From: an uncultured virus (IMG/VR IMGVR_UViG_3300046777_002950)
Taxonomy: Duplodnaviria; Heunggongvirae; Uroviricota; Caudoviricetes
Virus record (IMG/VR): IMGVR_UViG_3300046777_002950
Strand: one strand, 5' to 3'
DNA: 64,000 nucleotides
Positions 13,979 through 64,000 of this stretch are shown here, one piece after another; positions within the stretch are counted from its first letter, which is position 1; each line of letters starts with the position of its first letter. The notes under the pieces are model-generated. The model made no database searches, was not told where the DNA came from, and worked only from the letters and a program-made list of their open reading frames with translations. Made by a program: the position numbers and the translations under genes.

Positions 13979-13994
13979 AGTTAATATCCTTGGA

Positions 13995-14333: not shown

Positions 14334-15001
14334 TAAAATTCTCCTGTAAAAATAGTATAGTTCTTACTACTAAAGTCAGCGATCGCCTGTTTGGTTAATA
14401 ATGATTGTACATAAGCACTAACTTTATTATTAATAGTAATAGCAGCTATTCTCACATAGTAATCCCCAAGACTAACATTATCCCATCTAGCTGATAATTC
14501 AAAAGTTTCAATGGGGCTACTCCATTCTGAATCTTGGGCTTTCTTGTATTGCAAACTATAGCGATCGGTGTAAGAATCGTTGACTATTTTTGTACAGGTA
14601 ATAATTCCCGTGGCTGGGGTGATAGTCCATCCAGAAAAAGGAAAACTGAACTGATTATTATTGATTTTAGTGATAGTATAATAATTATTATAAATTGATT
14701 GATTTGCTCCTTTAATTAATATTAAATCATTGGTATTATAGCCATGATTTTGTGATGTAGTCACTGTTGCTGTTGTTCCTAAAAAAGTCATGTTGGTAAC
14801 TGTAAAAGTACTATTATTGATTTCTTTTCGTGGTTGTTGCCAAGATGCTAATAAAGCGTAAATATCGGTGTTTCCATAATTAATTTTAATTAACTCTGAC
14901 TTTAAATTAATTGGTGGTGAAGCAACTACTGGTAAAGTCTCAACAACAATGTTATTAGGGATAACAATATTGGTTTCAACTAAAGTATAAAAATCAACCA
15001 T
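14333..15001 (-). CDS. FN3-like tail-tip protein (separate C-terminal part of gpJ)
   Basis: SPPINL..LASWQQP / YSLQYK..W / GDYYVRIAAI FN3 pattern with an inserted NHGY module; overlaps the J gene. Confidence 0.65.
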   Translation of the reverse strand: MVDFYTLVETNIVIPNNIVVETLPVVASPPINLKSELIKINYGNTDIYALLASWQQPRKEINNSTFTVTNMTFLGTTATVTTSQNHGYNTNDLILIKGANQSIYNNYYTITKINNNQFSFPFSGWTITPATGIITCTKIVNDSYTDRYSLQYKKAQDSEWSSPIETFELSARWDNVSLGDYYVRIAAITINNKVSAYVQSLLTKQAIADFSSKNYTIFTGEF

Positions 15002-32800: not shown

Positions 32801-35800
32801 CAATATAGAATTAAAACCTGCGTCAAGACCTCTGAGAACAGCGGGATCTACTGGGTTTCCATCAGTACGAGCGATCGCAAAATGATGAGCAGCTAAAGTT
32901 TTTTGTTCCTGAAAATCGTCAACAAGTCTATTATAAGCAATGCTTTGAAGTGGGGTGAGATTTGCTGATTTGTTGTTTAAATAACCAAGTAAATCAGAGC
33001 TAGAAAGAACATTACTGGCAATACCTTCATGCTCAAAATCAGCGCCAAAGTTAACACCAATGTTAGATAATAAATCTTGAATCTTGAGTTTTTGGAAGTG
33101 TTCTTTGGTGGCTTTAATATGGGCTTGTGCCTGGTTTTCTAAATCTAAATCTTGCTGAAACACGGGGTTTGCTGGGAGAGGGGTATCCCAAGGATCAGCG
33201 ATCGCATTCCTAATATTTTCTGCCATGTTTCTAGCAGCATTAACAGCAGACTGGGATTGGTTGTCAATACCAGTTCCCATGCTACCAGCAATGTTTTCCC
33301 CAACATCAATGCCTTCACCTGATGGAGACGCTATTCTAAATACCTTTTTAATTGCACTGAGTATGCCTTTAGCAAACTTGGTGACTACTCCTAATACACC
33401 ACCATTTGCAGATATAAACCCTTGTGCAAAAGAAGAAATAAAGTTAATACTTATATCCTTTAGTCCACCACCTTTACTAAATGCAGATTTAGCGCTATTA
33501 AATACGTTACCCAAAATACTATCACCACTAAAATCTTTTTTTAGTGCTGACAACAGTTTAATTAATGAATGGGTAGGTTTATCAACTTCTTCTAAATATT
33601 TTTGAATTTCTGGCTGCTGGGCAAACTGCTTATAATCACCACTAGAATTATTGAAAGCACGAGCAGCTTTTGCTTGTAATTCTTTTAGTTTGTCTGGCGA
33701 AACTGTGTGAGATTGAATATACGGCTTCCCGCCTAACACAGAGTGAATATTGTCTCCCAGCGCAAGTTCCTTGGAGTCGGGATCGCTATTATTAAATGCA
33801 AATAAAATTTGATTTTTATCATTTAATTTACCATAACCTTGATAATCATTTAAATACGTTAACCCTAATGATTTAGCTATCTTAGGATTTTTTATTAACA
33901 TCTTATTAAATTTTGTAGCGAGTTTAAATGGTGTATTAAACTCTGTCATCAAGTTTGTGTCATGACTCCAGTCATAGACATCATTTATCTGTAGTCCCCC
34001 TTCTTTATTGCGGTTATAATTAAATCCCCCTAATGTATAGTGTAGATTTTTAAATCCTGGTATTTGACTAATATTATTCCCAACAGTGCCATCTCCTATC
34101 TCCCAATCATCAGGAATTGCTGTAATAGGCTTGTTTTCTTGTATAGACTTGTGCTTATAATTAAGTATTGACCTATACATCACAGCTATTTCCGCTTCTC
34201 TAGCTGTACGTCCTTGTATCTTATGTACATCAATATTACCTTGATAGTACGCGCCTAAATGTTTAACTGGTTCTGATATTTTCCCTAATATACCAGTATC
34301 ACCTAATGCAACTATAGCCGCGCCAATCATTGAGCCGAGTAAACTTCTTTTTTCTTTTTGCTTACTCTTGTCATAAACGTTCTTGGTAACATCTGCCATG
34401 TTACCAACTGAGTTTTTAATTACGTCATCATAATTGCTTATATGTTCAGAGTTAAACTGGTTTAATTCCTTAATACCAATGTCAACAGCCCCAGCTAACA
34501 TTGCACTAGCATCAGACACATCAATAACGCCTTTTTTAATGCCTACAGCCAACCCCGACGCTATCATTAAACCCAGTGCTATCATCACCTTCGATGGTGA
34601 ACTGATACCCATATTCTGCTTAATCCGGGATTGGATTGAATTACCAGCATTGTCCATAACTTTAGTAACACTTCCAATACTGTCCGCCATTCCTTTACCC
34701 AGTCCTTTCATAATATTTCCGCCTATGGACGTAAATGGCTTGGAAGAAGTATTATCAGAGGCTATAGCAGCACTACTAACATTTCTTGAGTCAGATTTAC
34801 TTATTGGTTGCTGACTAGGTAAATGACCCATATTCTTTTTAACTTGATTACTTACAGCATTAGTACTAGCACTCACGACTTTAGATGAAGCTGCAACGGT
34901 ATTAATAAGACTTCTATTAATGTTTTCAACTACGTTGCCACTCATGCGAGCAAAAGCATTTAAGGAAACGCTGTGTTTGTCCCCAAAGCTACCAATGGCA
35001 TCAGCTACTTGAGTGGGTGCGCCTAAATCAGTAATTGATTCCGCGATCGCCTGTTGATGAGTTGCACCTTTAGCAGCCTTTGTTACAATATTCCTATATA
35101 AATCTCTGGGAATAGTCAAAGCATCTATGCCATCAGCAAATACCGTCCCTGCGGTTTCAGTAACGGAATTAGCTGCTGTACCAAAACCAGTAGGAACTAC
35201 TTTTAATGCACTACCAATAGCTTTGATAATCTCAGGTTTAGTTAACTTTAAATCTTTTAATTTCTCCGTGAGAACCGCTTTATAAGCAGCCATGTAATCA
35301 AGAGACGGATCTTTTGCTAACCTGGTCTTAGTTTCCCCATGGGATTGGGCTACCGCTTTTCCTATTGCACCACTTCTTAAAAGTGCTGTCATACCAGACT
35401 GAGCCGCATCAAAAGCAGTAAATGAGCTTACACCGAAAGTAGCTGCACCTGCTTTACTTAAATTAATAAAATGATCAAATGCTTCTCTAGGCTTAGTAAG
35501 TGTCTTGTCAGCCCTTAGTTCAGCAACAAAATCTTTTCCAGACTCAAACGCAGACTGAAATAATGTTTGTTCTGGGTTAGCAGCGTGTCGTTCTCCTACT
35601 TTGTCAAGCATCTTTAGCCCAGAATCAGATGCAGCTAATCCTACACTCCCATAAGTGGCCGCAGTAGACATACCCGGTATAAGACCACCAACAGCCAATG
35701 CTGGCTCAAGAATTTCTTTAGCTGAACCCACAGCATCTTTAACGGTGCTTACAAGCTGTCTAGCCCCTACCGCAACTTTGCTGTTCCCTTTTTGCATCCC

Positions 35801-38344
35801 AAGAAACAGCCCAGAAGCTATCATCATCCCAATCTCAAACATCACCAAAGATGGAGACTGGATTTTCATCTTAGCTTCAACAGTTTCAATCAAGTCATCA
35901 AGCATCTGTCTAGCAGTATCAGACACGCCATCAGAGCCATGCTTAACACCTTTTGCTAATCCTGCGTCAATATCAATACCTAATTGTTGAGCCAAGGGTG
36001 CATAGTAAGCAAGCTGCTTATCAAAAATACTTTTTTCTTCTGTGTTTAGCTTACCTATTGCCTCATTAGCCCTTTTAGCATTAGCACTTACAGGAGATTT
36101 ACCTCCAGCATGAACTTTGCTAAGATCACTGTTAATTTTTTTATCAAAACCAGCATCTTCGGCTTGTTTAACAATATTATCTATATCTTTTATTGCAGAA
36201 TTACTAGTTAATATAAACTTTTTAAGTTTTTCTTTCGTGGCTTTAATTTCTGCTGGAGTTCCTGTTTTTTTAGTCTGGTCAACTTCAATTTTTAGCTTTT
36301 TATATTCTTCACTAAAATAATTGTTAATAGCTTTAAAAGAGGCTTTAACATTTTCTAAAGATATTTCTTTTTGTACTTTTATTTCGTCTGATTTTTTGGA
36401 CTTTCCTATTTCCAATGGCACTAATTCTTCACCATTCTCTCTAGCAGTTGCTTCAACATACTGCTTAGACAAATCAATATTTTTTAATGTATTAGTTTTT
36501 ATGGTTTCAAAGTGCTGTTTTAGTTGCTGTGGTACTTGACTAGCAGTAGTTTCAATAGGCACTAATTCAAGTTCTGGTTGTGGTTTTTTGGATTTTCTAG
36601 GAATATTTACAGGAATATTTAATGGCTGCTCTACAGGCGATTGTATTGCTTGTGTTACCACAGGAGCAGCTATTAAATTAATAGCAGATATAGAATTATT
36701 TAATGTATTGACTGCATTGTTCAATGACTGAGCGGCGTTTTCTAAACTAATTGCAGCCTGACTTAATCCTGAATCGGTAGAAACGGTACTTACATTGGCT
36801 ATGTACTCATTTAATCCTTTTGTGGCACTTTCTAAGTTGCTGGCAGCTTGTTTGAGTTCTGATTCAGGGGTGACAGGAATAGGCTTGGGTTTTGGAGTAT
36901 TTATAGTCCCAGTTTTCAAAAACTCACTAACAACACCATAAGTATTCGGTAGTATAGTTTTTGTTGTTGACTTTACAGATTGTTTTGCAAAACTAACTAT
37001 TTGAGAGCCAATTTTTCCGCCAAGAGACCCAGAGCCATCTCCCGTTCCCTCTAAAGAATTAAATACACCATTAACTGCATTTTGTATCTTTGCAGAGGAA
37101 TTAGCAAGAATATTCTGAGATCCTTTCCGCACTGCGCCGATAGTAGCACTTTTAACTCTTTGGGCTGTGTTTTCAAGTGATTGCTCAATTTCAGTCACAA
37201 ATTGATTGTTAATTTCAGTCAAGAACTGACTAGCAGCAGATGGTTTTACTGGTGTTTGTGTCTCTACATAATCATCAACCATCCCTCTTAAAATTGCCTC
37301 TACTCGCTTTTGTTCGTTTTTAGGATCTGATTGGGCTTTTTTACCTATACCAAAATAACGCAACAAGCCTTTGGCGGCAACCTGTCCAGTAGCTTCAAAA
37401 TCTACATCAACATCATTGGCGACTTTGGGTGGATTATATGCTTTTTTTCTACTTCTTTTGGTGCTACCAACAGCATTAGAATTGCTTGTACCTTGATACC
37501 ATGCAGCGCGGTGATCGTGCGCTACAACAAAAGCATCAATTCCATCTTTAAGAATAGCTTCTACTCGCTTCTGTTCATTTTTAGGATCTGATTGCGCTTT
37601 CTTACCTACACCAAAATAACGCAACATCATGTTACTAGTTATCCTAGTCATAGTTGGAATATCAACACCAACAGCATCCTCAATACCTCTATTAATCCCA
37701 TCAGTAAAACCTTTACCAAGTCCTCCAAATATCCCGTCCATAATAGCTCTACCTGGATTAACCACCATGTCTACTTTTTGGACTTTATTTGGCGATGAAG
37801 CTTCTTTAGCTGTTTGTTGTTGAGCCGTTACTGAAGCTTGTTCTGACATTTCTTCTTTAACAGCATTTTTAACAGCATCAGCTAAACTTTTTTCTAGTTG
37901 CTTACTTAAATCAGATTCAACAGTAATAGTAATAGTTCTACTAGAAAGCCCGCCTAATCTTTCTTCTAATTCATCAAGACTTTTGGTATCGGTATTAACT
38001 TTAATTGGATTGCTATCAAAATACTTATTAACTTGTTTAAGGTGCTGTACTTTTAAATTTAAGTGTTCATTCAAATCAGTCAAGCTACTATCATCAACAT
38101 TGACAACAATAGGATTATTATTAAAATACTTATTAACTTCTTTAAGATGTTGTACTTTTAAATTTAAGTGCTTATTTAAATTGACTAAGCTATCATCGTC
38201 CACTCCGACATTAAGATTAATATTTTCAAAGCTTTTTTCTACCGACACAGCCGCTTCATAAGCCTTCTTCTTAGCCCGTTCCAAAGTCTTTTCTAGCTCA
38301 GAAGAATCAGCAGATAACTCTACAATTAATTCGCCTAAATTCAT
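20813..38344 (-). CDS. Giant tape measure protein (5843 aa)
   Basis: N-terminal MNLGELIVELSAD, tape-measure core (QILAKGKLSMEELRQQLGE), SPS repeats and C-terminal FAxGG motifs; follows the tail chaperone genes; AGGAG RBS. Confidence 0.95.
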   Translation of the reverse strand: MNLGELIVELSADSSELEKTLERAKKKAYEAAVSVEKSFENINLNVGVDDDSLVNLNKHLNLKVQHLKEVNKYFNNNPIVVNVDDSSLTDLNEHLNLKVQHLKQVNKYFDSNPIKVNTDTKSLDELEERLGGLSSRTITITVESDLSKQLEKSLADAVKNAVKEEMSEQASVTAQQQTAKEASSPNKVQKVDMVVNPGRAIMDGIFGGLGKGFTDGINRGIEDAVGVDIPTMTRITSNMMLRYFGVGKKAQSDPKNEQKRVEAILKDGIDAFVVAHDHRAAWYQGTSNSNAVGSTKRSRKKAYNPPKVANDVDVDFEATGQVAAKGLLRYFGIGKKAQSDPKNEQKRVEAILRGMVDDYVETQTPVKPSAASQFLTEINNQFVTEIEQSLENTAQRVKSATIGAVRKGSQNILANSSAKIQNAVNGVFNSLEGTGDGSGSLGGKIGSQIVSFAKQSVKSTTKTILPNTYGVVSEFLKTGTINTPKPKPIPVTPESELKQAASNLESATKGLNEYIANVSTVSTDSGLSQAAISLENAAQSLNNAVNTLNNSISAINLIAAPVVTQAIQSPVEQPLNIPVNIPRKSKKPQPELELVPIETTASQVPQQLKQHFETIKTNTLKNIDLSKQYVEATARENGEELVPLEIGKSKKSDEIKVQKEISLENVKASFKAINNYFSEEYKKLKIEVDQTKKTGTPAEIKATKEKLKKFILTSNSAIKDIDNIVKQAEDAGFDKKINSDLSKVHAGGKSPVSANAKRANEAIGKLNTEEKSIFDKQLAYYAPLAQQLGIDIDAGLAKGVKHGSDGVSDTARQMLDDLIETVEAKMKIQSPSLVMFEIGMMIASGLFLGMQKGNSKVAVGARQLVSTVKDAVGSAKEILEPALAVGGLIPGMSTAATYGSVGLAASDSGLKMLDKVGERHAANPEQTLFQSAFESGKDFVAELRADKTLTKPREAFDHFINLSKAGAATFGVSSFTAFDAAQSGMTALLRSGAIGKAVAQSHGETKTRLAKDPSLDYMAAYKAVLTEKLKDLKLTKPEIIKAIGSALKVVPTGFGTAANSVTETAGTVFADGIDALTIPRDLYRNIVTKAAKGATHQQAIAESITDLGAPTQVADAIGSFGDKHSVSLNAFARMSGNVVENINRSLINTVAASSKVVSASTNAVSNQVKKNMGHLPSQQPISKSDSRNVSSAAIASDNTSSKPFTSIGGNIMKGLGKGMADSIGSVTKVMDNAGNSIQSRIKQNMGISSPSKVMIALGLMIASGLAVGIKKGVIDVSDASAMLAGAVDIGIKELNQFNSEHISNYDDVIKNSVGNMADVTKNVYDKSKQKEKRSLLGSMIGAAIVALGDTGILGKISEPVKHLGAYYQGNIDVHKIQGRTAREAEIAVMYRSILNYKHKSIQENKPITAIPDDWEIGDGTVGNNISQIPGFKNLHYTLGGFNYNRNKEGGLQINDVYDWSHDTNLMTEFNTPFKLATKFNKMLIKNPKIAKSLGLTYLNDYQGYGKLNDKNQILFAFNNSDPDSKELALGDNIHSVLGGKPYIQSHTVSPDKLKELQAKAARAFNNSSGDYKQFAQQPEIQKYLEEVDKPTHSLIKLLSALKKDFSGDSILGNVFNSAKSAFSKGGGLKDISINFISSFAQGFISANGGVLGVVTKFAKGILSAIKKVFRIASPSGEGIDVGENIAGSMGTGIDNQSQSAVNAARNMAENIRNAIADPWDTPLPANPVFQQDLDLENQAQAHIKATKEHFQKLKIQDLLSNIGVNFGADFEHEGIASNVLSSSDLLGYLNNKSANLTPLQSIAYNRLVDDFQEQKTLAAHHFAIARTDGNPVDPAVLRGLDAGFNSILLRIVEFSKRLGIKGQSIDKLLASNRSVVNTAAYQPPRFVAPKTPIPERQPGQTDQEYSQAVKRALAEDNNNYRKARNAYNRMILGVSNTPTPKITQLPALPPVPVYAREIIEPVTNVPPVQRTQATIPSIPDPWNDSVEQLVNTVKQATRTQFLLPPAKEHLNINSFVQTQSNLSRLAKEIVAQQPMTQLSKPQSPTIQRTSPIILPGNFAPNPNAQIISSQKFTPKPDAQILYSKNFAFNPNAQIVSSQKFTPKPDAQLILPVVQGLSPAIRSTHSLAQNSISALIAANKQIQATIAGNKVTVSSRFAPIPDPWTTPPLSTPPLPTQTVKQLSKQMTGQYGPIPDSWLTSSRSTQAFKQVGKLLIGQIPVTLSSTIPSFIPQPTGTATPKYVFPPQTLGTTVPTHTFPVNPTPTPPTPPTPPIPPTLLNQYLSLGTDLVTNIFNAVSTSIRQSTLSGYASLGQVMRNAVNAALFSLADTLKQPLHQALLSQTRSILPWFLKFIPRSFQLLPKLSFAIPFVGGMVLRLGNSIVKNLLENNILKKGGFLTNLLSSITKVDLSALSGTKTAGVAGFLEKIINPLPFLIGSQISPLSLGLLSASPLYDAFSGILGLDKSVKPNPKKQAPTIEKVLQDQTKINREKALLRDFKEVGVSTNTNAGVGQNLAAYPDIQRTKTEELLKRAVESGKAIPKLDELTRKALRERGVNRFARNQMDSAQLLTQRENILKNPLNATSKERDFLLYTADMKNSNAATLKKQEKRIISILKERGKSDQDIENIRKSGTDGLFDVGDDLIKNLPTITKQPTPIQTVQPRTSSASIASKELVENLGNTLLNSVLNSLDVPVIPKSVIQGMIGRKMGEKSATIADAINAFGVEKSKVEQLLTRNLESGNTKRLDGLTKQVLRERGVTESVRNAMTPEELAAAREKITKSPVDLTARERKLLKFMGDFESYVATMGNDVATRKRDAMTMSVLQERGMSRAQRKQIQQSQGGQGLSSFADNLRDNPRTGGFMGRFTEAYASNDQDAMKELVKQGLKRAGMSAKQINNIDPKLLDTATAGLMTTLSGLQAKFREKGFDMGKALAKGLKDSMVNLANAKDDLEYNAKKALGQANFGDSVGLIFRRMFRGTVATQGQFAEMYNQMGSGVKKLMFKNPKEGDEMFPNILQFVGSITTTLAPITTMIGAITPLLLPLAPIITGIGMAVNMVAPHVAKLIDGIQRVEVLQRRFKFLGGSKEGGKAEFNYAKDIATKLNVPSEVAANSYSQLAIAAKDSKMEGQGVKELFEGITSSLSALGINGQDASLVFTAYTQILAKGKLSMEELRQQLGEKFPPAMAMFAKAMGVTVPEMNELVASGGILSQDILPKVAKVLKEDYGSAAADQAGGLVVALNRLGNVGFEITTIFTDKIGGTLAFFVNTFANILGVLSGALKELIPLAQSFMIGFAATISIGLTIILSKFGPLRVAIGSLQNFLLATFSAITTNMMPMVVGVVSDVADGWLGAEKNLIENMFQGIANMFVTMFSAIDTAMRSMSDNKVSFSSLFGGLIQGAEQAGSIIDWLKGVFAGFFKILPSGIVEILAIVFMLEQGTGLMVMALWPAITKLWGGITGIFGATAKAFYGVMGSLKAVVELMMTSSAVAANATNNVAASGVKSMAIVQGALGFLSKALLHFGLAYAVLMFSKGDFSDPLRESINKSTADINKHLNQVRLNIGQTTEAFNKATKSVEKLGNTITNALPAKGVQLDIRSLWGGGDYKWDDAVRDTNAKYRPGGTGASAMDFLGPVALGLGGAGIGIAAKVAAASAANAASAAVAAKAFTLGTTVVQPAAVGIISRILAMLAPMLASPLAPWIAAIAGLIAAIGLATVALDAFAPKITEAQLEELPEEIKQIINAKKVGERLDSASLQVIKLYKDQELSNQRLKEFMASIGLDGTRPYSFVARPVVPMTQEQMTQEQKQKFESETPVQNITKRIEDKRASLQELEKLEPKETEKSKARSKEGYKKVQEEVTQLEKDKLLMQLSFMANLDNKPKMDALNNDIAKQKLVVDELRMREAQLKKEEMQYSFFGRPSFSGTSQKLKYAKDGQTYKEESQKLEKLKKEKAALQANIDASAQRRVNYDAIKEIDVDIEKASAEFVEASNQLAVNPNDKLRQKAGLAKERILQLQKRRQKLVDEFGDPTPSIKQALEVNKKEIEKTLSDLNLTPQQRKVTVKQLKERQETLQKSLAEAQKFSVAPIADTMYTQAIAALKDNEVKSNIDISKNKIVSNQAQAKLYSTTLTSQQIAPSLSDRQIADLTFQQKVLERSLKIKEDNLFKLQQAEAQSPTNLSQIQEEIVKLQQEIAKDREQVSQNTLEIVKTQREARQALIDQTKQVAEYYRTSLRESKAAAIEFDKATNNIKSQQFATKLKQALVGAGNNIFTNFIDSVIGLFQQLTEIENLRLDRQKQKLDYENNIQDILIKVTEMQRSLPGKIVPFDVGKIRDFDKELRTVNKSVSSINKEVNNVANGIGVSAVNSTINLNKALQDLLKTLQDINKNPLNPTAQPFNNSSSSNTPVGVSQRTKIPVTHEDEQIWREFVAPQSGIKRGTSSLPTSTPVANALKEVLVAGLMSDIPVQLYANKPKDKNNSFNLTPFTSPIANQLLTPNTFVSPIANRSLADLLNTRYGVQELFGYRNSKGLTLGKNAGVSRGSDVVASLGGTAFLEGNTLKIAHNAVDGKIVYVIYQGLNPKSITKNLGIKGKEKIEVSPGQLIGNPSGDKFKFGIAVGEPGKVTQNPYKNPLTFVRDIYRANQKQPMNPLQWLNRTFINRTDPVVNSLGLTQYTGVIKTSNQSINKPITTTSTPPVNQAIDWVKGKVKGFVRQNAPEPVKRVIRNTKNFVDNIPPIIPTYNQNTNSYNPGILDILIGNNSKPKPKPNNSTGSSRNNQSTGNKPTTTNQSKSGSGTNQGTDKKLTPTNQGNVPNLSSAFPQPSTGGLTLVSNTRNQIPPDLSSAFPSTPNGIKLTNASTSGNNNQGNNQDKLLVSPIPGKTLADILKFPYTDNEKKDGAYYGSARGVNRDTQLKAPISGKATLYIYKDKSNEDLTFVDITKNINGKQIIVRLTDLSLDSIKKNLGNLKHQSSFSLKAGQPIGTPQENRSVYMTASVQGKDLTIVDFIKNSQSYGFSPQGLTATPKTTPPNTGNLPQIPQTKQPVVIPPGTDPYTRSQLENQPLKPGNLQPGVESSGKLSLEAKKKQAAAEAAKNRAEIQSKLIEFQRTLANLLRDTNKSIRDESLQAAQDINNASEYIQGLLNPNASDKEKFATDFQKLKTEYQAKINEQENIIESAKVPLAELARVDELIAAAQREGIDASGLKTKRDEVYRVVKVREQTAIKLRKMYIDNKNKVFDTYVDRFKEEQLNKDAERRANLLGVNISQLKLQLEELKGIQAIDPLNPGLLKIPDLEANIAELELTQTTLQKIAALRREWQQSGGKNMSQEVFKKRAEDIMNTVTKQTGIIDRKRQTDKISAYVNRELGLIDKGAAEREPITKGLQLDNSLFAASNKNGLVNIINFENEALIKQKELMDSYRKNSLEAQLPQSKLTLDEQITKRLRNAMNLQKELEILKIETEYQKATGEIKNRQVTVDVQVKLSDAAKAIFESKSTIKKNLGLELAGERLDRQNAITAQENEYKRKQNETDQFILDNKLTDPQADELRRNNQIENDSKIRAIESQFSELAQIMKSFVSGFKNSFKEFLLSTEDTGTALLNLAKGIGKSVLDTLAEMASKRVTDLLFGWMGGTGLNPASELSFAAQQLTQAAYALQNVGRSSSIADVPDLDVGSLGGFAGFGDIASFSPTGMEFLDPSAFTAADFGSASLSGFAKGGMIDKDTLGKIQNFANGGIVGTMNKERAMTGRTPHLVVASEGERILNHKETAIWNKLQTGISGFADGGVVGGGSGDIASKIGGSTTTVNVPVSVSVNEGSDVDGARLSQTVQALVSDGIRREMRPGGSIRRGNPYGR

Positions 38345-50491: not shown

Positions 50492-50555
50492 TGGATTTAG
50501 TTTCTCATCCTTTAACCCACTATTAATAGTGGGTTTTTTTGTAGATATAAAAATC

Positions 50556-52028
50556 ATGAATAAACTTAATCCTAAAAATATTATTAGAGTCAGAGAGGCC
50601 ACTAAAACCAGGTCATTTAGAAGCCAAATAGTCCACATTGACTTACCAGACCCCCAGCCCGGAGCGCAAGAACTATTTTATGATAACTACGCTGATGTCT
50701 GCATATATGGTGGCGCGGCCGGCAGTGGTAAGAGTTATGCTATGTTACTAAAAGCAGCTAAATATTTAAACGTACCTGGTTATGGTTCAGTAATCTTCAG
50801 AAGAACCCGACCGGAAATAACCAATGAAGGTGGTTTATGGGATGAGTCTAGGAGTTTATATAAACAAATAAAAAACTCAATAGCGCGGGAATACCAGCTT
50901 GACTGGACATTTCCCAATGGTAGCGCGATTAGTTTTGGTCATGCTCAGTACGAGAAAGATGTAGAAGATAAGTACCCTGGTTCGCAGATATGCCATATCG
51001 GTTTTGATGAACTGACTAAGTTTACCGAGCGTCAATTCTGGTTTCTTTTTTCCCGTAATCGTTCCGCCTGTGGGGTCAAGCCTCGCATAGATGCAACTTG
51101 TAACCCTGATGCCGATTCATGGGTAGCTAAGATGATTAGTTGGTACATTGATCAGAACACAGGATATCCCATAGAAGAACGGTCAGGAATTATCCGTTAT
51201 TTCTATCGGATTAATGGGGAATTGCACTGGGGTGATACTGAAGATGAACTCATGGACAAGTTTCCTGACTTAGCAGAAATAGCACCGCCTAAAAGCTTTA
51301 GTTTTATTAAAGGTACGGTTTATGACAACCCGGCACTAATAGAAACTAACCCTCAATACTTACAAAATCTATTATCGTTGCACCCCGTAGAAATGGAACG
51401 ACTACTTAAGGGCAACTGGAAAATTAAATATGAATCAGGGACTATCTTTAATCGTCAATGGTTTGAAATCGTTGGTAGCGTTCCCAGTGGTGGTACAACA
51501 GTAGCTTTTTGGGACTTTGCAGCCACCGCCGCTGATGTTGCCACCAAGTCTAGTTTTTATAGTGTACGTACCAAAATTAAATTACATCAAGGCACGTACT
51601 ACATCCTTGATTGTCACTGGGAACAGGTATCAGCAGAAGAAGGTGACTTATCAGTAGTTAAGATTGCTTACCAAGATGGCCACGATTGTAAAATCAGATG
51701 GGAACTAGAAGGTGGTAGTGCCGGTAAACGTTATGAAGTTTCGCTAAAGCGTCAATTAACAGAATTTGACGCTAAAGGAATTAAACCATTGGGGGATAAA
51801 GTTACCCGTGCCTTACCTATGGCGATCGCAGCCAAACAGGGAAAAGTCAAACTACTTAGGGGTGCTTGGAACGATCAGTTTCTCGCTGCAATACATGAAT
51901 TTGATGGAAGTAAGAAACCCCTCACCAATGACATTGTAGACAGTGCCGATGGTGCTTTTAGTGAATTGGGCAACTCGGCACCGCGTAGTACGTTCGTGGG
52001 CGGAAAAATCAACAATCCGTTTGCTTAG
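50556..52028 (+). CDS. terL: Terminase large subunit
   Basis: YGGAAGSGKS, IGFDELT, TCNP, LKGNW; nuclease WDFA...DIVDS. Confidence 0.95.
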   Translation: MNKLNPKNIIRVREATKTRSFRSQIVHIDLPDPQPGAQELFYDNYADVCIYGGAAGSGKSYAMLLKAAKYLNVPGYGSVIFRRTRPEITNEGGLWDESRSLYKQIKNSIAREYQLDWTFPNGSAISFGHAQYEKDVEDKYPGSQICHIGFDELTKFTERQFWFLFSRNRSACGVKPRIDATCNPDADSWVAKMISWYIDQNTGYPIEERSGIIRYFYRINGELHWGDTEDELMDKFPDLAEIAPPKSFSFIKGTVYDNPALIETNPQYLQNLLSLHPVEMERLLKGNWKIKYESGTIFNRQWFEIVGSVPSGGTTVAFWDFAATAADVATKSSFYSVRTKIKLHQGTYYILDCHWEQVSAEEGDLSVVKIAYQDGHDCKIRWELEGGSAGKRYEVSLKRQLTEFDAKGIKPLGDKVTRALPMAIAAKQGKVKLLRGAWNDQFLAAIHEFDGSKKPLTNDIVDSADGAFSELGNSAPRSTFVGGKINNPFA

Positions 52029-55033: not shown

Positions 55034-55096
55034 TTGACAATAAATAGTAGAATAGACTATAGTAGTTACATACACAGGAAACAAGGGAGACAGACA
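55034..55096 (+). promoter_or_regulatory. Repeated early-promoter cassette (copy)
   Basis: Near-identical to 54466-54530. Confidence 0.75.
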
Positions 55097-55555
55097 ATGA
55101 CTACAACATTAAACCAGTATACTCAACAAGATTACAGTGCAATTAACCGGGTTTTAAGATACGGGAAAAATCATGAGTCAGTAGAACAAATAATTGAAGA
55201 TTTACAAAATGTTAAATGCTTTAAAGGAACAGTCTACCGTGGCTTAACCCTTCGCAAGTCAGAAATACTGACGACTTTTAAAGTCGGCAAAGTTTATCGG
55301 GATATGGGATTTATGTCCACATCCAAAAGTCAAGTTATAGCCCAGAAATTCAACTGCTTGGGTGTACCCTTGTCCAGAACAGAAAATAGAGCAATCACCC
55401 TTGTGATTGAATCTAAAACCGGGAGAGATATTTCTAAGTTCTCTGAATACCCTGAAGAACGAGAGGTATTGTTTTTGCCTTTAACTGGGTTTGAAGTTCT
55501 TTCTATTGAGAAAGACGGCTGGGAAGAATATACAATAGTTTTGAAAGAAATTTAA
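55097..55555 (+). CDS. ADP-ribosyltransferase (R-S-E clade, VIP2/Alt-like)
   Basis: YT...Y..IN..LR, VYRG, GFMSTS, EEREVLF; true start is ATG 55097 after the GGGAGA RBS. Confidence 0.9.
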   Translation: MTTTLNQYTQQDYSAINRVLRYGKNHESVEQIIEDLQNVKCFKGTVYRGLTLRKSEILTTFKVGKVYRDMGFMSTSKSQVIAQKFNCLGVPLSRTENRAITLVIESKTGRDISKFSEYPEEREVLFLPLTGFEVLSIEKDGWEEYTIVLKEI

Positions 55556-57039: not shown

Positions 57040-57246
57040 GACAGATTAACCCGCCTTTATCGGGTAAAATGTTAACCAGTGATACAACCGTTCTGAGTGC
57101 GACTACACTCTTTACGGTGCTGGTTTTAATTATTATAGCACGTAATCGCAAATATAACAATCTTTATTGACGTATTGATTAAAAACCCTGGACTAGCGAC
57201 AATCCAGGGGTTTCGTTTTTGACTAATTAAATCAGTCCTTTACTGA

Positions 57247-58077: not shown

Positions 58078-58782
58078 TCATTTAACAGCGACTAATCCCA
58101 TAAAATTAAACCATCTCCAAAAACAATCAACAAACTTAAAACCACAATTACATAACAATTCTTCATTCCATTTAGCTGTTACAGGAACTAAAACTCCCTC
58201 TAGGCTTAATCTTTTTCTCTCTATCTCGTAAATAGAATAACCGTTTTTATGTTTTAGGTTATAGTAATTTTCTGTCATCAAACTATCAAGATTTGCGCTA
58301 TTGCCAATGACTTTTTCAACCAAAATAATTGCACCGCCTGGGGACAAGGAATCATAGCATCTTTGTAAAACTTGCAGCCGATATTCAATAGGAATAAACT
58401 GTAAGGTTAAGACGCTTAAAATCACGTTACAGTTTTGTATATCTACCCAATCTTTCCGCAAATCAATATTATATAATTCAATGTTTTTCTGATCTTTGAA
58501 CCTTTTCTGACTTGCTATTATCATAGGTTCGCTGCACTCAATTCCGTGATAATAACAATCCTTCCCACAAATAGCTGCAATTCTATCGATTTGATCACCA
58601 CGGCTACAACCTAAATCTAGTAGATGTCCTCCTGTTTTTAAGTAACTACAGGCAATATCAGTAACAGCTTTTCTCATTACTTCGTACTGCGGAATTGATC
58701 TAGCAAGCATATCATCAAAGATGTCTGTTACTGACTCATCAAATTCCCATTTATCTTTTGACGGTACATGGTAATTGTTCAT
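58078..58782 (-). CDS. cmoA: Carboxy-S-adenosylmethionine synthase (CmoA-like)
   Basis: WEFDESV..FDDMLARSIPQY, DLGCSRG, TLQF, PGGAIILVEK, K..NGYS..EI..KR.SLE and FNF all match the CmoA family pattern. Confidence 0.88.
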   Translation of the reverse strand: MNNYHVPSKDKWEFDESVTDIFDDMLARSIPQYEVMRKAVTDIACSYLKTGGHLLDLGCSRGDQIDRIAAICGKDCYYHGIECSEPMIIASQKRFKDQKNIELYNIDLRKDWVDIQNCNVILSVLTLQFIPIEYRLQVLQRCYDSLSPGGAIILVEKVIGNSANLDSLMTENYYNLKHKNGYSIYEIERKRLSLEGVLVPVTAKWNEELLCNCGFKFVDCFWRWFNFMGLVAVK

Positions 58783-59819
58783 AATTTCTCAAGTATTTCT
58801 AGCTGAATTGTTTTAGCAATATGCGACATCATAACAGGCGGTACAGCCCGTCCTAATCGTTCCCATTGTTGATCGTAACTACCAGATAAAATAAAATCAT
58901 CAGGAAATGCACAAAGTCTTTTAACTTCTACTATTGATAAAAGGCGACATTTTAATGGATGCATTACCTGACCGTTTGATCGGCATTGACTCTGACCAAT
59001 TGTATTTACAGGTTTGGATGGATTGGGACGTTTTAAAGAAAAACGTTCTGGATGCGCTCCTCCTAGTGGTGTTTCGTGCCATTGCTTTCCTATTTTATAT
59101 TTAGTAATGTCTGTTTCCGGTTCTAATACTATTTCTAAATTTTTGATCGCATCATTAAACGAGTATTGGTAACTTAGCGGTTTAGGATGTACAGGTTCTA
59201 ACTTTAAATCATTTCTCACACCCACAAAAATAGTCCGTTGTCTCATTTGTGGAACGCCCAACCATTGAGCATCTAAAACTTTACATTTGACATTATACCC
59301 ACAGCCTTTCAGTGCTTTTAATATTTCTAGAAAGTAACCTTTTGCAGTTCCTTTTATTAGTCCAGATACATTTTCCGCCACAAATACTTTGGGCTGAGTT
59401 CCTTTAATCAATCTTGCGTATTCAAAAAATAAGTCATCTACCCTTTGCTTTGTGTCTGAATACTTCTTAACTTTTGCCCACCCTGCTTCACGTTTACCAG
59501 CAGTCGAAAAAGCAGCGCATGGTGGCGAACCATCAAATATATCAATTTCACCAATTCTTAAACCAGTTGCTTTTAAAATATCTTCTGGTTGTACTAATCG
59601 AATATCTCTAGTATCCAGAATGGAATTAGTATGATTAGCTCTATAGCACTGTTGAGCAGCAGGTATAAACTCATTAGCCCATAAAACTCGATAACCTGCC
59701 ATGCGATAACCCAAGCAAGATCCTCCTGTTCCGCTAAAAGTAGAGACTACATTGAATCCGTTCCAAGGAATGTTTTTAATATCTTCCATAGAAGGGACTT
59801 TATACGCTGGTTTATTCAT
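58779..59819 (-). CDS. C5-cytosine DNA methyltransferase-fold enzyme, predicted carboxymethyltransferase
   Basis: FSGTGG, GSPPCAAFS, ENV, PQMRQR, RLCAFPDDF; motif X reads LGRAVPP instead of xGNAVPP. Confidence 0.9.
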   Translation of the reverse strand: MNKPAYKVPSMEDIKNIPWNGFNVVSTFSGTGGSCLGYRMAGYRVLWANEFIPAAQQCYRANHTNSILDTRDIRLVQPEDILKATGLRIGEIDIFDGSPPCAAFSTAGKREAGWAKVKKYSDTKQRVDDLFFEYARLIKGTQPKVFVAENVSGLIKGTAKGYFLEILKALKGCGYNVKCKVLDAQWLGVPQMRQRTIFVGVRNDLKLEPVHPKPLSYQYSFNDAIKNLEIVLEPETDITKYKIGKQWHETPLGGAHPERFSLKRPNPSKPVNTIGQSQCRSNGQVMHPLKCRLLSIVEVKRLCAFPDDFILSGSYDQQWERLGRAVPPVMMSHIAKTIQLEILEKL

Positions 59820-60352
59820 TTTCCACCGCTCCACTTATATCCACATTTAGGGCATTCGTGATCTGTTTCTATGCTTTCATCATATTCTTTAAAGTCACCC
59901 GATGTCCGCTTACTATCATCATTATTATTATCTTCCTGTTCATCATCCAAAAAACTTAATTCCAATTCCCCAAAGCCCGTTAAACCCAGATCAAAATCAC
60001 TATCCTGTAGAAACTCAAAATCCAGTTTCAACATATCAGGATCAAATCCAGTATTCATGGTCAGCTTGTTGTGTGCTAAACGATATGCCACTTTTTGAGC
60101 ATCTGACAGCCCGGTAACTTGAATTACGGGAATTACAGCATCACCCCGTTTCTTGGCTGCTAAAAGCCGACCGTGACCTTCTAATATTTCACCATTCTCA
60201 TCTACTGCCACCGGGTCAAGGAATGTAAATTCTTCTATGGAATTAGCTATCTGTTCAATGTGGGAATCAGGGTGCAACTTAGCATTGTTCTCATAAGGAC
60301 TTAGACGCTCAATGTCCCATTCTTCTATCTGACTACGCTTGATTTTGCTCAT
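59816..60352 (-). CDS. ParB/Srx N-terminal domain protein with a C-terminal zinc ribbon
   Basis: PYENNAKLH, SIEEF.F..P, GHGRL.AA, YRLAHNKL, CPKCG. Confidence 0.9.
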   Translation of the reverse strand: MSKIKRSQIEEWDIERLSPYENNAKLHPDSHIEQIANSIEEFTFLDPVAVDENGEILEGHGRLLAAKKRGDAVIPVIQVTGLSDAQKVAYRLAHNKLTMNTGFDPDMLKLDFEFLQDSDFDLGLTGFGELELSFLDDEQEDNNNDDSKRTSGDFKEYDESIETDHECPKCGYKWSGGK

Positions 60353-60644
60353 TAAAGTACCACTTATACGCTTTATTCATTACACGCTGTATCATATCAC
60401 GTTTATCGTCACTGAGTCCACTAAACTCAATTAATTCATCCACTGTTTGCTTGGGAATATCCTTCAGTAGTTGCCCCAAAGCAAAACCCACAAATGCAGT
60501 ACCTAAAATTTCAATTCCTGTAAAATCTAATTGCACCAACTCATTACGTAGTAAGTGGTAATGAATTACTCTGTACAAATTTTCTCCATGTTCAATAGCG
60601 ATCGCGCTATATCCAGTAAAATCAAAAATCTTAAATATCTTCAT
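60333..60644 (-). CDS. STAS-like (DUF4325-type) protein
   Basis: GENLY..I, VQLDFTGI....AFVG.ALGQL; likely ATG at 60644. Confidence 0.7.
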   Translation of the reverse strand: MKIFKIFDFTGYSAIAIEHGENLYRVIHYHLLRNELVQLDFTGIEILGTAFVGFALGQLLKDIPKQTVDELIEFSGLSDDKRDMIQRVMNKAYKWYFNEQNQA

Positions 60645-61188
60645 CTTCACCTCTGCTTGGATCAATAATTTGGTAGCCTTCTCTAGATAGCTTATCAGCA
60701 GCTGCGTTGACATCAACAAAGTATTTAATTCCTCTAGTTTCATTGATGGCACTTGTTGACCGCTGCAAGGCTTGCGACCATTGATTTGTTTCAGGTGCGC
60801 TATGCAGAGAAATTGCTTTCTTTCTTTCTTCTCCTGTTAGTTCTAAATCCTCTGCCAATTGCCTAGCTTTAACTTCAATTATTTTAGCTACATAATCCCT
60901 AGCGAGTTTGTGTACTTTGTAGTTTTCAATGACAATTTGAGAGAGTTCATCTGATATTTTCTCAGATGCTTTTTGTATAGTTTTAACTTGAATAGTTGTC
61001 TTGAGGGTGTCTTGGTACTGTCGCCTTTGGTCTACCCATAATTCTCGTCTTACCCATACCTCAACAGTTCCCTTACCTAAGCCAGCCTCGACAGCCAGTT
61101 TTCTAATACCTATATCCTCTTCACTTTCAACGTAGCGACGGCGACACTGTTCTTTAGTCCATGGTTTTGGTAGTTTTTCCCATTTCAT
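60631..61188 (-). CDS. Probable terminase small subunit
   Basis: N-terminal HTH (YV......IRKLA...G....V..W.RRE.W..QR) followed by coiled coil; next to ParB and a methylase. Confidence 0.65.
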   Translation of the reverse strand: MKWEKLPKPWTKEQCRRRYVESEEDIGIRKLAVEAGLGKGTVEVWVRRELWVDQRRQYQDTLKTTIQVKTIQKASEKISDELSQIVIENYKVHKLARDYVAKIIEVKARQLAEDLELTGEERKKAISLHSAPETNQWSQALQRSTSAINETRGIKYFVDVNAAADKLSREGYQIIDPSRGEDEDI

Positions 61189-61305: not shown

Positions 61306-61635
61306 TCAAGGTCTAAATATTTGAATCAAACTCAGTTCCAATTTAAACACTTTCTCACTTGATGGTGTCCACTTAAACGTCTCGCAACGGTACAAAGTGG
61401 AATTAAAGTAAAAAGGCTTACCTAAATTATTAGTTAAAAAAGTATCAATCTCTGAATAAGTAAATAAACTATCAATGGTCAGGGTTAAAGTCTGCGTACC
61501 AACTACTTGGTTAAGTTGGTTTCTATTCCCTTTCTCATTCACGCCACCCTGGTAGTTTTGAGACAAGAAAGTGGCCTCAAAACTTATGGCATTATCCCAA
61601 CTGATTTTGAGAGAACTAGGCGCGTTTGGGAACAT
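61306..61635 (-). CDS. Second gpM-like minor tail protein
   Basis: Similar to 13995..14333: IDTFL...GKPFYF, YRCETF.W, FKLELSLIQIF. Confidence 0.65.
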   Translation of the reverse strand: MFPNAPSSLKISWDNAISFEATFLSQNYQGGVNEKGNRNQLNQVVGTQTLTLTIDSLFTYSEIDTFLTNNLGKPFYFNSTLYRCETFKWTPSSEKVFKLELSLIQIFRP

Positions 61636-61842: not shown

Positions 61843-63606
61843 ATGAAAACTTTTGAATTTAAGCTTGACCTTACGGTTGCACAAGTACAAACGATTAATC
61901 AATGGCTAGACAAACTCAAGTGGGTTTGGAATACAGGGCTGTCGCTCAAACTAGCAGGAAGACAGAAATATTATAGAGAGAAAGAAATAGGCGATCGCGT
62001 CATTCCCAGTGGTGTGGTTTTGCAGTGGAAATGGCGAAAAGTTGTTACTGAAGATAAAAAAGGTAAGTCTACTGAGAAGTGGGAGAAAGTCCGCTTAGTC
62101 GGTACAGGTGTCATCAGACCTAAAAGCGGTCATCCTTACTGTGAAATTAGACAACACTTAAATATTGAAAACCCTGATAAATATGGACAATGTGAATTTT
62201 ATAGGAGTGACAATATTCCCGACTTTATGGCAGATGTTCCCACTAAATTTAAGGCAGGGGTAATTGATTCTTTAAAGAAATCATGGAAAGCTTACGTTAC
62301 TCCAAAACACCCCGGTAGAAAGCCAAAATTCAAAGGGAGAAACGATAAAATCAAGTCGCTTGTTAATCTCAATGCTGGGGGTTTATCCAAAGAACTAAAA
62401 CCGGAAAAAATACCCGGTTCAAATAATGGTTATGTCCAGTTCCCCAAGCTTGGTAAAATTAAAGTTAAAGGATTATTTGATAGATATGACTGGCAAGAAT
62501 GGGGTCCTGCCAGAATAGTTAAAGAACCATCAGGTTACTATCTTCATGTATGCGTTGATATCCCCAATGACCCATTACCAAAATCTGATAAAGCAGTAGG
62601 AATTGATCCGGGTTTACTATCAATTATTACCACAGATCAGGGTAAAGAAGTTGAGCCGCCTAAGCTATTTAGGAAACAACAAACTAAGCTAAGACGATTA
62701 CAGCGTAAAGCATCTAGGCAGAAGAAAGGAGGATGTAATCAGAAGAAAACTTATCAAAAAATAGCCCTACACCATGAGAAGATCCGCCGCAGCCGCAACG
62801 CATTTAACCATAAGTTATCTACTAAAGTTGTGCGTGAGTATTCTGGGATTGTGATGGAAGACTTAAAGATACAAAACCTGAACCGTAAGCCCAAAGCCAA
62901 GAAACGTGAGGACGGCAATGGCTATGAACAAAACGGTGCAAAACGTAAAGCCGGGTTAAACAAAAGTTTTGCCGATTCAGCACTGGGTGATTTAATCAGT
63001 AAGATTGAAACAAAGTGCAAAGATACTGATAGAGAGTTTGTAAAAGTTGCGGCACACTACACTACGGTTGACTGTTCAAAATGTGGTGCTAAAATAAAGA
63101 AAGCATTGAGCCAAAGAACTCACCGCTGTACAGAATGTGGTCACACTGAAGGACGTGATTCTAATGCAGCCAAGAATATTTTACTCAAAGGCAAAAAGCA
63201 ATTACAAACAGTGTACCGCGCTTGGGCGTGGGAACATGGGGAAACCCGAAAGCCTGGCTCTGATTCCAATACGGAATGTCACCAGGAAGGTGTGCAAACA
63301 CCACCGGAGGATGGATATTCCTCCCAATTAAACCCCGAAAGGGGAACTCAGCGCGGAAGGGGGGATATAAAAACCTCTAAAACCGTGAAAACAACCCCAA
63401 AGGTAGACACCGTAAGCAACCTGAACCTTGACAATTTACCAAACACCCGCGCACCTTACCCAGTAAGCATTTCAGCTAATTCAGCGAAAACTCAAAAGCC
63501 TGGAACAAAGAAAAATAAGAGATCCGCGCAATCAGGGGATGAAACTTTTACACAGCTTACGATCTGGGATACGGCTGGTGAAACCGACCTTGGGGAACTG
63601 GGTTAA
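61843..63606 (+). CDS. TnpB-like compact type V CRISPR effector (Cas12f / V-U-like)
   Basis: RuvC I VGIDPG, RuvC II VMEDL, zinc finger CSKC...CTEC, RuvC III RDSNAAKNI; directly abuts a CRISPR array; the stop codon lies in repeat 1. Confidence 0.9.
   Translation: MKTFEFKLDLTVAQVQTINQWLDKLKWVWNTGLSLKLAGRQKYYREKEIGDRVIPSGVVLQWKWRKVVTEDKKGKSTEKWEKVRLVGTGVIRPKSGHPYCEIRQHLNIENPDKYGQCEFYRSDNIPDFMADVPTKFKAGVIDSLKKSWKAYVTPKHPGRKPKFKGRNDKIKSLVNLNAGGLSKELKPEKIPGSNNGYVQFPKLGKIKVKGLFDRYDWQEWGPARIVKEPSGYYLHVCVDIPNDPLPKSDKAVGIDPGLLSIITTDQGKEVEPPKLFRKQQTKLRRLQRKASRQKKGGCNQKKTYQKIALHHEKIRRSRNAFNHKLSTKVVREYSGIVMEDLKIQNLNRKPKAKKREDGNGYEQNGAKRKAGLNKSFADSALGDLISKIETKCKDTDREFVKVAAHYTTVDCSKCGAKIKKALSQRTHRCTECGHTEGRDSNAAKNILLKGKKQLQTVYRAWAWEHGETRKPGSDSNTECHQEGVQTPPEDGYSSQLNPERGTQRGRGDIKTSKTVKTTPKVDTVSNLNLDNLPNTRAPYPVSISANSAKTQKPGTKKNKRSAQSGDETFTQLTIWDTAGETDLGELG
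63215..63350 (+). ncRNA. Putative tracrRNA/omegaRNA-like scaffold overlapping the effector 3' end
   Basis: Five consecutive hairpins, three with GNRA loops, plus CAATTAA(A)CCC complementary to the repeat's GGGTTAATTG. Confidence 0.6.
63351..63576 (+). promoter_or_regulatory. Putative CRISPR leader inside the effector ORF
   Basis: GCGCGG (63351) and CCGCGCA (63447, 63524) boxes directly before repeat 1; resembles Nostocales chromosomal leaders as I recall them. Confidence 0.55.
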
Positions 63607-64000
63607 TTGCAAGTTATCCCGATATTAACGCAAGTATGGTGAAACCGACGGTGAAACCGACCTTGGGGAACTGGGTTAATTGCAAGCAGAAATAAGATCA
63701 CCAACTTCATTCAGAAAATTGAGGTGAAACCGACCTTGGGGAACTGGGTTAATTGCAAGCGAGATACAGTTTATTTCTAAGATGAGAGGTATCTAGGTGA
63801 AACCGACCTTGGGGAACTGGGTTAATTGCAAGATTCAGATTGTCAAAACCAATATCGGCAACATTGGTGAAACCGACCTTGGGGAACTGGGTTAATTGCA
63901 AGACTTACTTTGATAAAAAAGGCACTGAAAAAAGAGGGTGAAACCGACCTTGGGGAACTGGGTTAATTGCAAGAGATTCATCAGGCTTCTTTGCAGCATT
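63577..64000 (+). CRISPR. CRISPR array, 37-bp repeat GGTGAAACCGACCTTGGGGAACTGGGTTAATTGCAAG, at least 6 repeats (truncated by the window end)
   Basis: Identical repeats at 63577, 63650, 63723, 63796, 63866 and 63937; spacers of 36, 36, 36, 33 and 34 nt plus a partial sixth. Confidence 0.98.

Follow-up and report, generated by a model that had tools for sequence, protein, structure and literature searches.

A predicted CmoA-CmoX cytosine carboxymethylation module without a ligase gene in an uncultured tailed phage

The locus at positions 58,078 to 59,819 of an uncultured virus (IMG/VR record IMGVR_UViG_3300046777_002950; Caudoviricetes) raises the question of whether two overlapping genes, one for a CmoA homologue and one for a C5-cytosine methyltransferase homologue with arginine at the usual asparagine of motif X, make up a system that writes 5-carboxymethylcytosine (5cxmC) into DNA. 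The whole 64,000-nucleotide (nt) stretch of DNA that was analysed is called the window below. The original prediction held that the phage makes its own carboxy-S-adenosylmethionine (Cx-SAM) and uses it to carboxymethylate cytosine. Each step of this reading that can be checked in the sequence held, and we consider it highly probable that the window phage carries a working CmoA-CmoX carboxymethylcytosine system. The chemistry has been demonstrated for SpCmoA and SpCmoX of Synechococcus phage S-B43 only; for the window copy, activity, target and end product are inferred.

A natural system of this kind was first shown experimentally in late 2025, in phage S-B43 (Yang et al., Nat Commun 2025, PMC12783734). 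According to the main text of that report, SpCmoA makes Cx-SAM from S-adenosylmethionine (SAM) and prephenate, and SpCmoX transfers the carboxymethyl group to cytosine C5 in GC motifs of double-stranded DNA. Cx-SAM is the only cofactor that wild-type SpCmoX takes, and the R350N variant works with neither of the two. R350 itself is in contact with the carboxymethyl group, replaces N304 of HhaI and mirrors the engineered N374K change in M.MpeI. A ligase, SpCmoY, then adds glycine, and native S-B43 DNA is described there as containing the glycine amide and no free 5-carboxymethyldeoxycytidine (5cxmdC). Modification by SpCmoX blocked digestion with HhaI. The same report lists 5,615 candidate CmoX proteins, for which the SPPC motif (SpCmoX S95-C98) together with R350 served as the search criterion, and counts 4,257 CmoA, 2,251 ligase and 1,660 ParB-domain neighbours. 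The original prediction had pointed to a comparable pair in a Synechococcus phage and allowed that the chemistry might not be wholly new; this pair is SpCmoA/SpCmoX of S-B43, and the chemistry was already in print. The window is a further example of this published system, minus the follow-up ligase.

In the window, three minus-strand genes are linked by ATGA overlaps, which can be followed both in the list of open reading frames (ORFs) and in the raw sequence. The first encodes a ParB-like N-terminal-domain protein of 178 amino acids (aa) (60352-59816), the second the C5-cytosine transferase (59819-58779) and the third the CmoA homologue of 234 aa, a predicted Cx-SAM synthase (58782-58078). 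The transferase ORF, of 346 aa, starts with ATG at 59819 and ends with TGA at 58781-58779. This stop codon overlaps the start codon of the CmoA homologue, appearing on the plus strand as TCAT at 58779-58782, and the coupling of the two genes described in the original prediction is thereby confirmed. A second ATGA overlap, which that prediction did not mention, places the ParB-like stop codon on the CmoX start codon at 59816-59819. With overlaps at both junctions, the three genes can therefore be treated as one coupled unit.

The transferase is a full-length member of its family: residues 22-339 match positions 1-323/324 of the C5-cytosine methylase domain PF00145 (expectation value E 1.8e-58), and TIGR00675 is matched with E 4.2e-53. 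Its best match among solved structures is 8yf3_A (E 2.3e-67), and PDB entry 8YF3 is SpCmoX itself (PMC12783734). Six SpCmoX residues are named in that report (F25, E47, F48, D69, C98 and R350); all six are conserved, as F28, E50, F51, D72, C101 and R324. The first four of these are invariant in alignments A1 and A3, as is the SPPC of motif IV (S98-P99-P100-C101), which is encoded on the minus strand at 59517-59528 in the raw sequence and contains the catalytic cysteine equivalent to SpCmoX C98. R324 is invariant across the 22 sequences of A3. The ENV and Q-x-R-x-R motifs are also present. Together with the database and tblastn matches and the tree described below, these features identify the 58779-59819 gene as a homologue of CmoX-type DNA cytosine C5-carboxymethyltransferases.

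Motif X had been read as ERLGRAVPP, with an arginine codon at 58848-58850. The codon is CCG on the plus strand and thus CGG in the gene, encoding Arg324 within exactly that peptide. Arg324 aligns with the motif-X asparagine of HaeIII (IGNAVP) and with R350 of SpCmoX in 8YF3 (ERVGRMVPP), and when the C-terminal 80 residues are searched alone, it aligns with the asparagine of DNMT1 (VGNAVPP). Given the alignments to HaeIII and DNMT1, Arg324 therefore occupies the motif-X asparagine position, as had been proposed. The equivalence of this position to HhaI N304 and M.MpeI N374 is taken from the main text of PMC12783734, not from an alignment of our own.

For the 234-aa protein, the best family is CmoA, TIGR00740 (E 2.7e-48, 164.7 bits). 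Its best matches among solved structures are Haemophilus influenzae YecO, 1im8 (E 2e-31), and Escherichia coli CmoA, 4gek (E 2.8e-29), and among phage families it matches phrog_4752 (E 4.3e-69). In E. coli CmoA, Arg199 forms a salt bridge to the carboxylate of the cofactor Cx-SAM (Byrne et al. 2013, PMC3663124); the further contacts given in that paper are Tyr39, Asp62, Gly64, Ser66, Ala70, Asp89, Asn90, Asn132 and Phe137. These contacts were mapped by hand with a constant offset on the 4gek alignment, and every named residue fell on the right letter. The arginine of the KRxxLE motif, reported as retained in the original prediction, is R191 (in E-R-K-R-L-S-L-E; codon AGA, 58210-58212 on the minus strand), which lines up with the arginine of the 4gek segment Q-K-R-S-M-L-E and is the equivalent of Arg199. 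The lysine before it, K198 in E. coli, is kept as well, and the equivalents of Y39, D62, G64, S66 and F137 are Y33, D56, G58, S60 and F129. E82 at the Asp89 position is a conservative change.

Retention of the Arg199 equivalent is unusual among phage CmoA-like proteins. In 72 such sequences, this column contains arginine in 14 (the window protein included), glutamate in 51 (SpCmoA included), lysine in 4, alanine in 2 and serine in 1. Because glutamate occupies the column in most of them, the carboxylate-binding residue of this Glu-type majority must lie elsewhere. The N132 column contains asparagine in only 1 of the 72. By this count, the window CmoA belongs to a minority subtype that seems closer to the bacterial enzyme.

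Relatives of the CmoX gene can be found in both cultured and uncultured phages. In tblastn comparisons with cultured phages, identities are 53.1% for Streptomyces phage TurkishDelight, 47.2% for Moraxella phage Mcat8, 40.3% for Synechococcus phage S-B43, 38.5% for Aphanizomenon phage CL131 and 37.5% for Synechococcus phage S-CRM01; identities to IMG/VR loci reach 75%. The gene orders vary. With A, X and Y standing for the cmo genes, S-B43 has A-Y-X, Mcat8 has ParB-like, X, A, S-CRM01 has A-X, and TurkishDelight has two ParB-like genes followed by X, an AsnB-like ligase and A. CL131 has ParB-like and X, with asparagine in motif X and no CmoA. The IMG/VR scan yielded 77 related loci, and with others there were 83 CmoX-like sequences. 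Of the 77 loci, 72 have a CmoA homologue, 57 a ParB-like gene and 14 exactly the ParB-like, X, A order of the window; motif X is readable in 75, with arginine in 74 and asparagine in one (L083), which is also without CmoA.

Among the 83 CmoX-like sequences, motif X is readable in 81, and these comprise 79 Arg-type enzymes and two Asn-type ones (CL131 and L083). An insertion after motif IV, W-x3-K-x-Y-S-[DE], is present in all 79 of the former and in neither of the latter; this tally uses the looser form of the pattern, as a stricter one matched only 23 of the 83. In a quick maximum-likelihood tree (IQ-TREE, 78 rows, midpoint root, with the short rows L064, L066, L073, L074 and L079 dropped), the Arg-type enzymes form a single clade with a Shimodaira-Hasegawa-like approximate likelihood ratio test (SH-aLRT) value of 99. 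The window falls inside it, and CL131 and L083 fall outside. Within the Arg-type clade, the window belongs to a group of 47 rows (SH-aLRT 99) that contains both ligase types. The closest relatives, L007-L017, are 68-75% identical in CmoX and 64-70% identical in CmoA, and seven of them share with the window an Ant-like gene downstream of CmoA.

What kind of phage carries the module, and in what host, can be judged from other genes in the window. It is a tailed phage, with a large terminase gene (50529-52028), a Mu-type portal gene (18249-20150), a DnaB helicase gene (819-2165) and tail genes like lambda L, M and J at 10648-16820. A megablast search of 20 kb against cultured phages gave no match, and blastn in its 'distant' mode found only short pieces in five records. 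A filamentous member of the Nostocales is the probable cyanobacterial host, because a Cas12/TnpB-like gene near the module is 88% identical to a copy in Dolichospermum circinale (76% to that of Aphanizomenon phage CL131), and Cylindrospermopsis phages have ParB-like genes similar to that of the window. In the Dolichospermum genome with this 88% identical copy, used as a proxy, neither CmoA (best 31 bits, against a cut-off of 193) nor CmoB (best 34 against 275) was detected. With no CmoA in the proxy, the Cx-SAM synthase would have to come from the phage itself.

By analogy with S-B43, the module would work as follows. CmoA would make Cx-SAM from SAM and host prephenate. In CmoX, Arg324 would bind the carboxylate of the cofactor and so hold the carboxymethyl group, Cys101 would attack cytosine C6 by the standard cysteine addition, the carboxymethyl group would pass to C5, and DNA containing 5cxmC would be released. 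Carboxymethylation would act on phage DNA that is already polymerised, and the modified base would shield this DNA against restriction enzymes. With no amide ligase in the 64 kb, we lean toward the free carboxylate as the end product, with clearly less assurance than for the system as a whole.

The coupled ParB-like gene suggests a possible third component. The role of ParB-domain neighbours is given as unknown in the main text of PMC12783734. The window protein matches phrog_620 (E 3e-51) and phrog_498 (E 3.7e-43), the latter being the N-terminus of a DNA methyltransferase family of 633 positions; its matches to PF02195 (E 0.0018) and TIGR00180 (E 4.5e-6) are weaker. In alignments A4 and A5, a patch of the form G-x-x-R-x-x-A is seen at G59-R62-A65, and the C-terminal tail of the protein, DFKEYDE ... 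H-x-C-P-x-C-G-Y-x-W, is conserved. A prediction of its complex with CmoX was worthwhile because the gene is coupled to CmoX, such a gene is present in 57 of the 77 loci, and the family forms the N-terminus of phrog_498. The complex received a median score of 0.61 (runs at 0.64, 0.58 and 0.61), compared with 0.00 for the best of three controls. Of 157 solved complexes, 116 attain that mark, as do 2 of 215 mismatched pairs; for our prediction, these counts are a rough guide only, since our own 22-row alignments (A3 and A4) were used. Between runs, at least 42% of the contacts are shared, and the partner has a predicted local distance difference test (pLDDT) value of at least 68.

The confident predicted contacts join ParB-like residues 150-163 (T-S-G-D-F-K-E-Y-D-E-S-I-E-T) to CmoX residues 155-167, 178-186, 196 and 211-214. 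In 22 ParB-like proteins linked to CmoX, F154 is invariant and D153 nearly so. Alignment A5 shows that D-F-K-E-x-D-E is kept beside Arg-type enzymes and altered beside the Asn-type methylases (CL131 and L083) and beside a terminase (Cr-LKS4); the C-P-x-C-G piece is kept in all nine ParB-like sequences of that alignment. The prediction supports binding and does not demonstrate it, and we propose only tentatively that the conserved C-terminal peptide of the ParB-like protein serves as its docking site for CmoX. A bolder version would make the protein a subunit of the carboxymethylase, with D153-F154-K-E-Y-D-E, which sits just before the H-x-C-P-x-C knuckle, on the CmoX strand K178-D183 and with a ParB/Srx-type N-terminal domain bringing CmoX to DNA, and would add that free 5cxmC is packaged; this combination is doubtful. 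We know of no solved complex of a ParB-like protein with a C5-methyltransferase. DpdB would be a functional analogue: in the 7-deazaguanine system, the DNA transglycosylase DpdA depends on this ParB-like ATPase.

Several observations weigh against the proposed carboxymethylation system or against parts of it. The CmoA homologue, at 164.7 bits, does not reach the TIGR00740 equivalog cut-off of 193.3 bits. However, the biochemically validated SpCmoA scores still lower, at 115.6 bits, so the cut-off leaves out known active phage enzymes. Three E. coli contacts, N132, N90 and A70, are replaced in the window CmoA by V124, C83 and Q64. In CmoX, the region between motifs VIII and IX, where target recognition resides, differs from that of SpCmoX in alignment A1; because of this, and because the two enzymes are only about 40% identical, the GC specificity of SpCmoX cannot be transferred to the window enzyme. 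For the window ParB-like protein, sequence identity is only 27-37% to its counterparts next to the closest CmoX relatives, compared with 44-52% to ParB-like proteins whose neighbour is an Asn-type methyltransferase (L083) or a terminase (Cr-LKS4), so a partnership with CmoX would not be exclusive.

The palindrome content of the window belongs with these observations. At 38.4% G+C, short palindromes are strongly avoided: the 19 copies of GGCC compare with 78.7 expected and the 20 of TCGA with 56, GGTACC does not occur where 13.1 copies are expected, GAATTC occurs once where 18.4 are expected, and GGATCC, CCCGGG, CCGCGG and GTGCAC are absent. Sites that contain GC are among the depleted ones (GGCC, GCTAGC, CAGCTG and CTGCAG), and blanket protection of GC would not predict this. 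Observed-to-expected ratios are 0.24 for GGCC, 0.73 for GCGC, 0.78 for AGCT and 0.82 for TGCA, compared with 0.36 for TCGA and 0.68 for both CCGG and GATC. GC-containing palindromes are thus not spared relative to others, and these statistics gave no signal from which a target site could be read. The pattern is typical of restriction-site avoidance, persisting here despite a DNA-modification module.

The remaining points on that side concern the ligase, and they favour an alternative in which the carboxymethyl group is transferred as proposed and then capped as an amide, either a glycine amide, as in S-B43, or, with a glutamine-dependent ligase, a carbamoylmethyl group. The ligase would be encoded outside the window or supplied by the host, and the virion DNA would then contain no free 5cxmC. 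A ligase gene is present in 50 of the 77 loci (34 SpCmoY-like and 16 AsnB-like), and in 10 of the 11 closest relatives an AsnB-like one lies between CmoX and CmoA. The only such phage DNA described in the main text of PMC12783734, that of S-B43, carries the glycine amide alone. Furthermore, the window is a partial genome of 64 kb, the relatives CL131 and Cr-LKS4 having 101-113 kb, so a ligase could lie outside it. An exact 40-base pattern from the window end had no match in viral, metagenome or genome contigs.

Nevertheless, we regard capping as unlikely. In all 50 of the ligase-bearing loci, the ligase is in the same gene run as CmoX and CmoA, whereas in the window these two genes overlap by 4 nt, with no room for a ligase gene and no remnant of one. 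The absence of an amide-ligase hypermodifier from the window, already noted in the original prediction, was upheld by both searches: when SpCmoY and the TurkishDelight ligase were compared by BLASTP with every window frame of at least 60 aa, nothing was returned at E 1e-5, and Pfam scans of 48 ORFs and both halves of the giant ORF described below showed no Asn-synthase, GATase or CmoB family (some 20 mostly antisense ORFs of at least 90 aa were outside the Pfam scan and within the BLASTP search). Loci without a ligase are also common, at 27 of 77, and several of them (L055, L061, L065, L067, L068 and L075) include about 6 kb of flank on each side. L012 and L018 are without a ligase, like the window, and so are the cultured phages S-CRM01 and Mcat8 in the stretches examined. 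On the quick tree, no fewer than 12 switches of ligase label are required, and gain and loss of the ligase are therefore frequent.

A second alternative denies carboxymethylation of DNA altogether: the transferase would be an ordinary SAM-dependent methylase making 5-methylcytosine, and the CmoA homologue would serve the tRNA modification uridine 5-oxyacetic acid (cmo5U), as in E. coli. Classical members of both families do exactly this. We consider it very improbable here, as wild-type SpCmoX takes only Cx-SAM and its R350N variant neither cofactor (PMC12783734), and the window CmoX has both the arginine and the insertion linked to it. The two genes are also translationally coupled. The original prediction had found no cmoB or tRNA gene in the window, and this stands: CmoB was missing from the scanned ORFs as well as from the Dolichospermum proxy, ARAGORN found no tRNA gene in the window, and Rfam at gathering thresholds gave no match there. 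A third alternative, that CmoA mainly depletes host SAM against SAM-dependent defences and that DNA carboxymethylation is secondary or absent, draws on an open question in the Discussion of PMC12783734 and on the turnover of SpCmoA reported there, ten times that of E. coli CmoA, and seems just as improbable, since CmoA is nearly always paired with an Arg-type CmoX (72 of 77 loci), and is coupled to it here, and since an intact CmoX with all its catalytic motifs would be superfluous if CmoA were purely a sink for SAM.

With carboxymethylation of DNA as the preferred reading, the window module can be compared with known systems. It shares with that of S-B43 a CmoA homologue, a C5-methyltransferase homologue with SPPC and the carboxylate-binding arginine, and, as predicted for the window, post-replicative cytosine carboxymethylation in a cyanophage; ParB-domain neighbours are noted in PMC12783734 as well. 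The differences are considerable. CmoX is about 40% and CmoA about 27% identical, the genes stand as ParB-like, X, A instead of A, Y, X, the CmoY ligase is missing, and the window CmoA keeps arginine at the Arg199 position, where SpCmoA aligns glutamate. S-B43 is a T4-like phage of the Kyanoviridae, whereas the window phage is of siphovirus type with a probable Nostocales host. Mcat8 and S-CRM01 resemble the window in having an Arg-type CmoX beside a CmoA homologue and no ligase in the stretch examined, and Mcat8 also has the same three-gene order; neither record is annotated as such a system. Their CmoX proteins are 47% and 37.5% identical to that of the window, and their CmoA proteins are without the Arg199 equivalent.

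Two further comparisons concern the separate halves of the module. In M.MpeI N374K, as described in PMC12783734, a basic residue at the motif-X asparagine position likewise lets a C5-methyltransferase make 5cxmC from Cx-SAM; that enzyme is engineered, acts on CpG and uses lysine, whereas the window enzyme is natural, has arginine and is accompanied by its own predicted Cx-SAM synthase. With E. coli CmoA/CmoB (4GEK and 4IWN; PMC3663124), the window shares the Cx-SAM synthase fold, several of the SAM contacts and the Arg199 residue. Unlike that system, it has no detected CmoB and no tRNA substrate gene, and the predicted acceptor is DNA cytosine, reached through the C5-methyltransferase homologue.

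The only report of a natural system that we found is PMC12783734, and its main text mentions neither ligase-less phages with terminal 5cxmC nor a role for the ParB-like protein. Through the window, the phages for which 5cxmC is predicted gain a siphovirus whose host is probably a bloom-forming member of the Nostocales, with the system in a minimal, ligase-less form in which the free carboxylate may be the final base. If so, free, negatively charged 5cxmC would be packaged, a state undetected in S-B43, the only phage whose native DNA has been analysed to date (PMC12783734). Two leads can be tested: the predicted docking of the ParB-like C-terminal peptide on CmoX, and the insertion after motif IV that tracks Arg-type enzymes. 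In practical terms, annotation pipelines still call such genes 'DNA methyltransferase' and 'tRNA methyltransferase', and the DNA of such phages may be refractory to restriction enzymes and may mislead methylation calls based on bisulfite or nanopore sequencing.

The genes that flank the three-gene module were left out of it because they have few or no relatives among the 83 loci. Directly upstream of the ParB-like gene, and overlapping it, is a gene for a DUF4325 (STAS-like) protein (60333-60752, minus strand; PF14213, E 2.4e-10); neither this gene nor the ORF at 61306-61635 has a relative in the 83 loci. The flanking ORF at 60631-61188 has one, in L005 (Cr-LKS4). On the other side, the KilA-N gene has one relative and the Ant-like gene has seven, and in the closest contigs all of these follow CmoA on its downstream side. 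After the KilA-N gene, a terminator-like hairpin of 10 pairs followed by a T run (57186-57209, minus strand) is a candidate for the possible end of the minus-strand transcription unit. A promoter and terminator scan of the window gave counts no higher than in shuffled sequences, with five terminator-like sites against 4.4 expected.

Beyond these flanks, the Cas12/TnpB-like gene mentioned above encodes 587 aa (61843-63606, plus strand), with OrfB_IS605, Cas12f1-like TNB and helix-turn-helix (HTH) domains. Directly after it, a clustered regularly interspaced short palindromic repeat (CRISPR) array at 63577-64000 runs off the window end. It has at least six copies of a 37-nt repeat at a spacing of 70-73 nt, and the first repeat overlaps the 3' end of the gene. 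The 88% identical homologue in Dolichospermum circinale is likewise followed by an array, of 14 repeats, and its repeat shares only the ends with that of the window.

Elsewhere in the window, a single ORF of 5,843 aa (20813-38344, minus strand) encodes a tape-measure protein. PF20155 matches its residues 3,067-3,242 (E 9e-26), corresponding to 145-320 of the C-terminal half of the protein, and there is no other Pfam match in this ORF. Tail length usually scales with the length of the tape-measure protein, and 5,843 aa would imply an exceptionally long tail. An ADP-ribosyltransferase-like protein of 173 aa (55034-55555, plus strand) matches the ART family PF01129 (E 5.8e-14) and PF03496 (E 2.9e-11) and has no relative in the 83 fetched loci. 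A gene for a DUF5895 protein is located at 3774-4688 on the plus strand (E 1.1e-29). Finally, positions 24-129 contain five perfect tandem copies of a 21-bp unit, within an ORF open at its 5' end and some 700 bp ahead of the gene for the DnaB helicase; these copies resemble iterons and may indicate an origin of replication.

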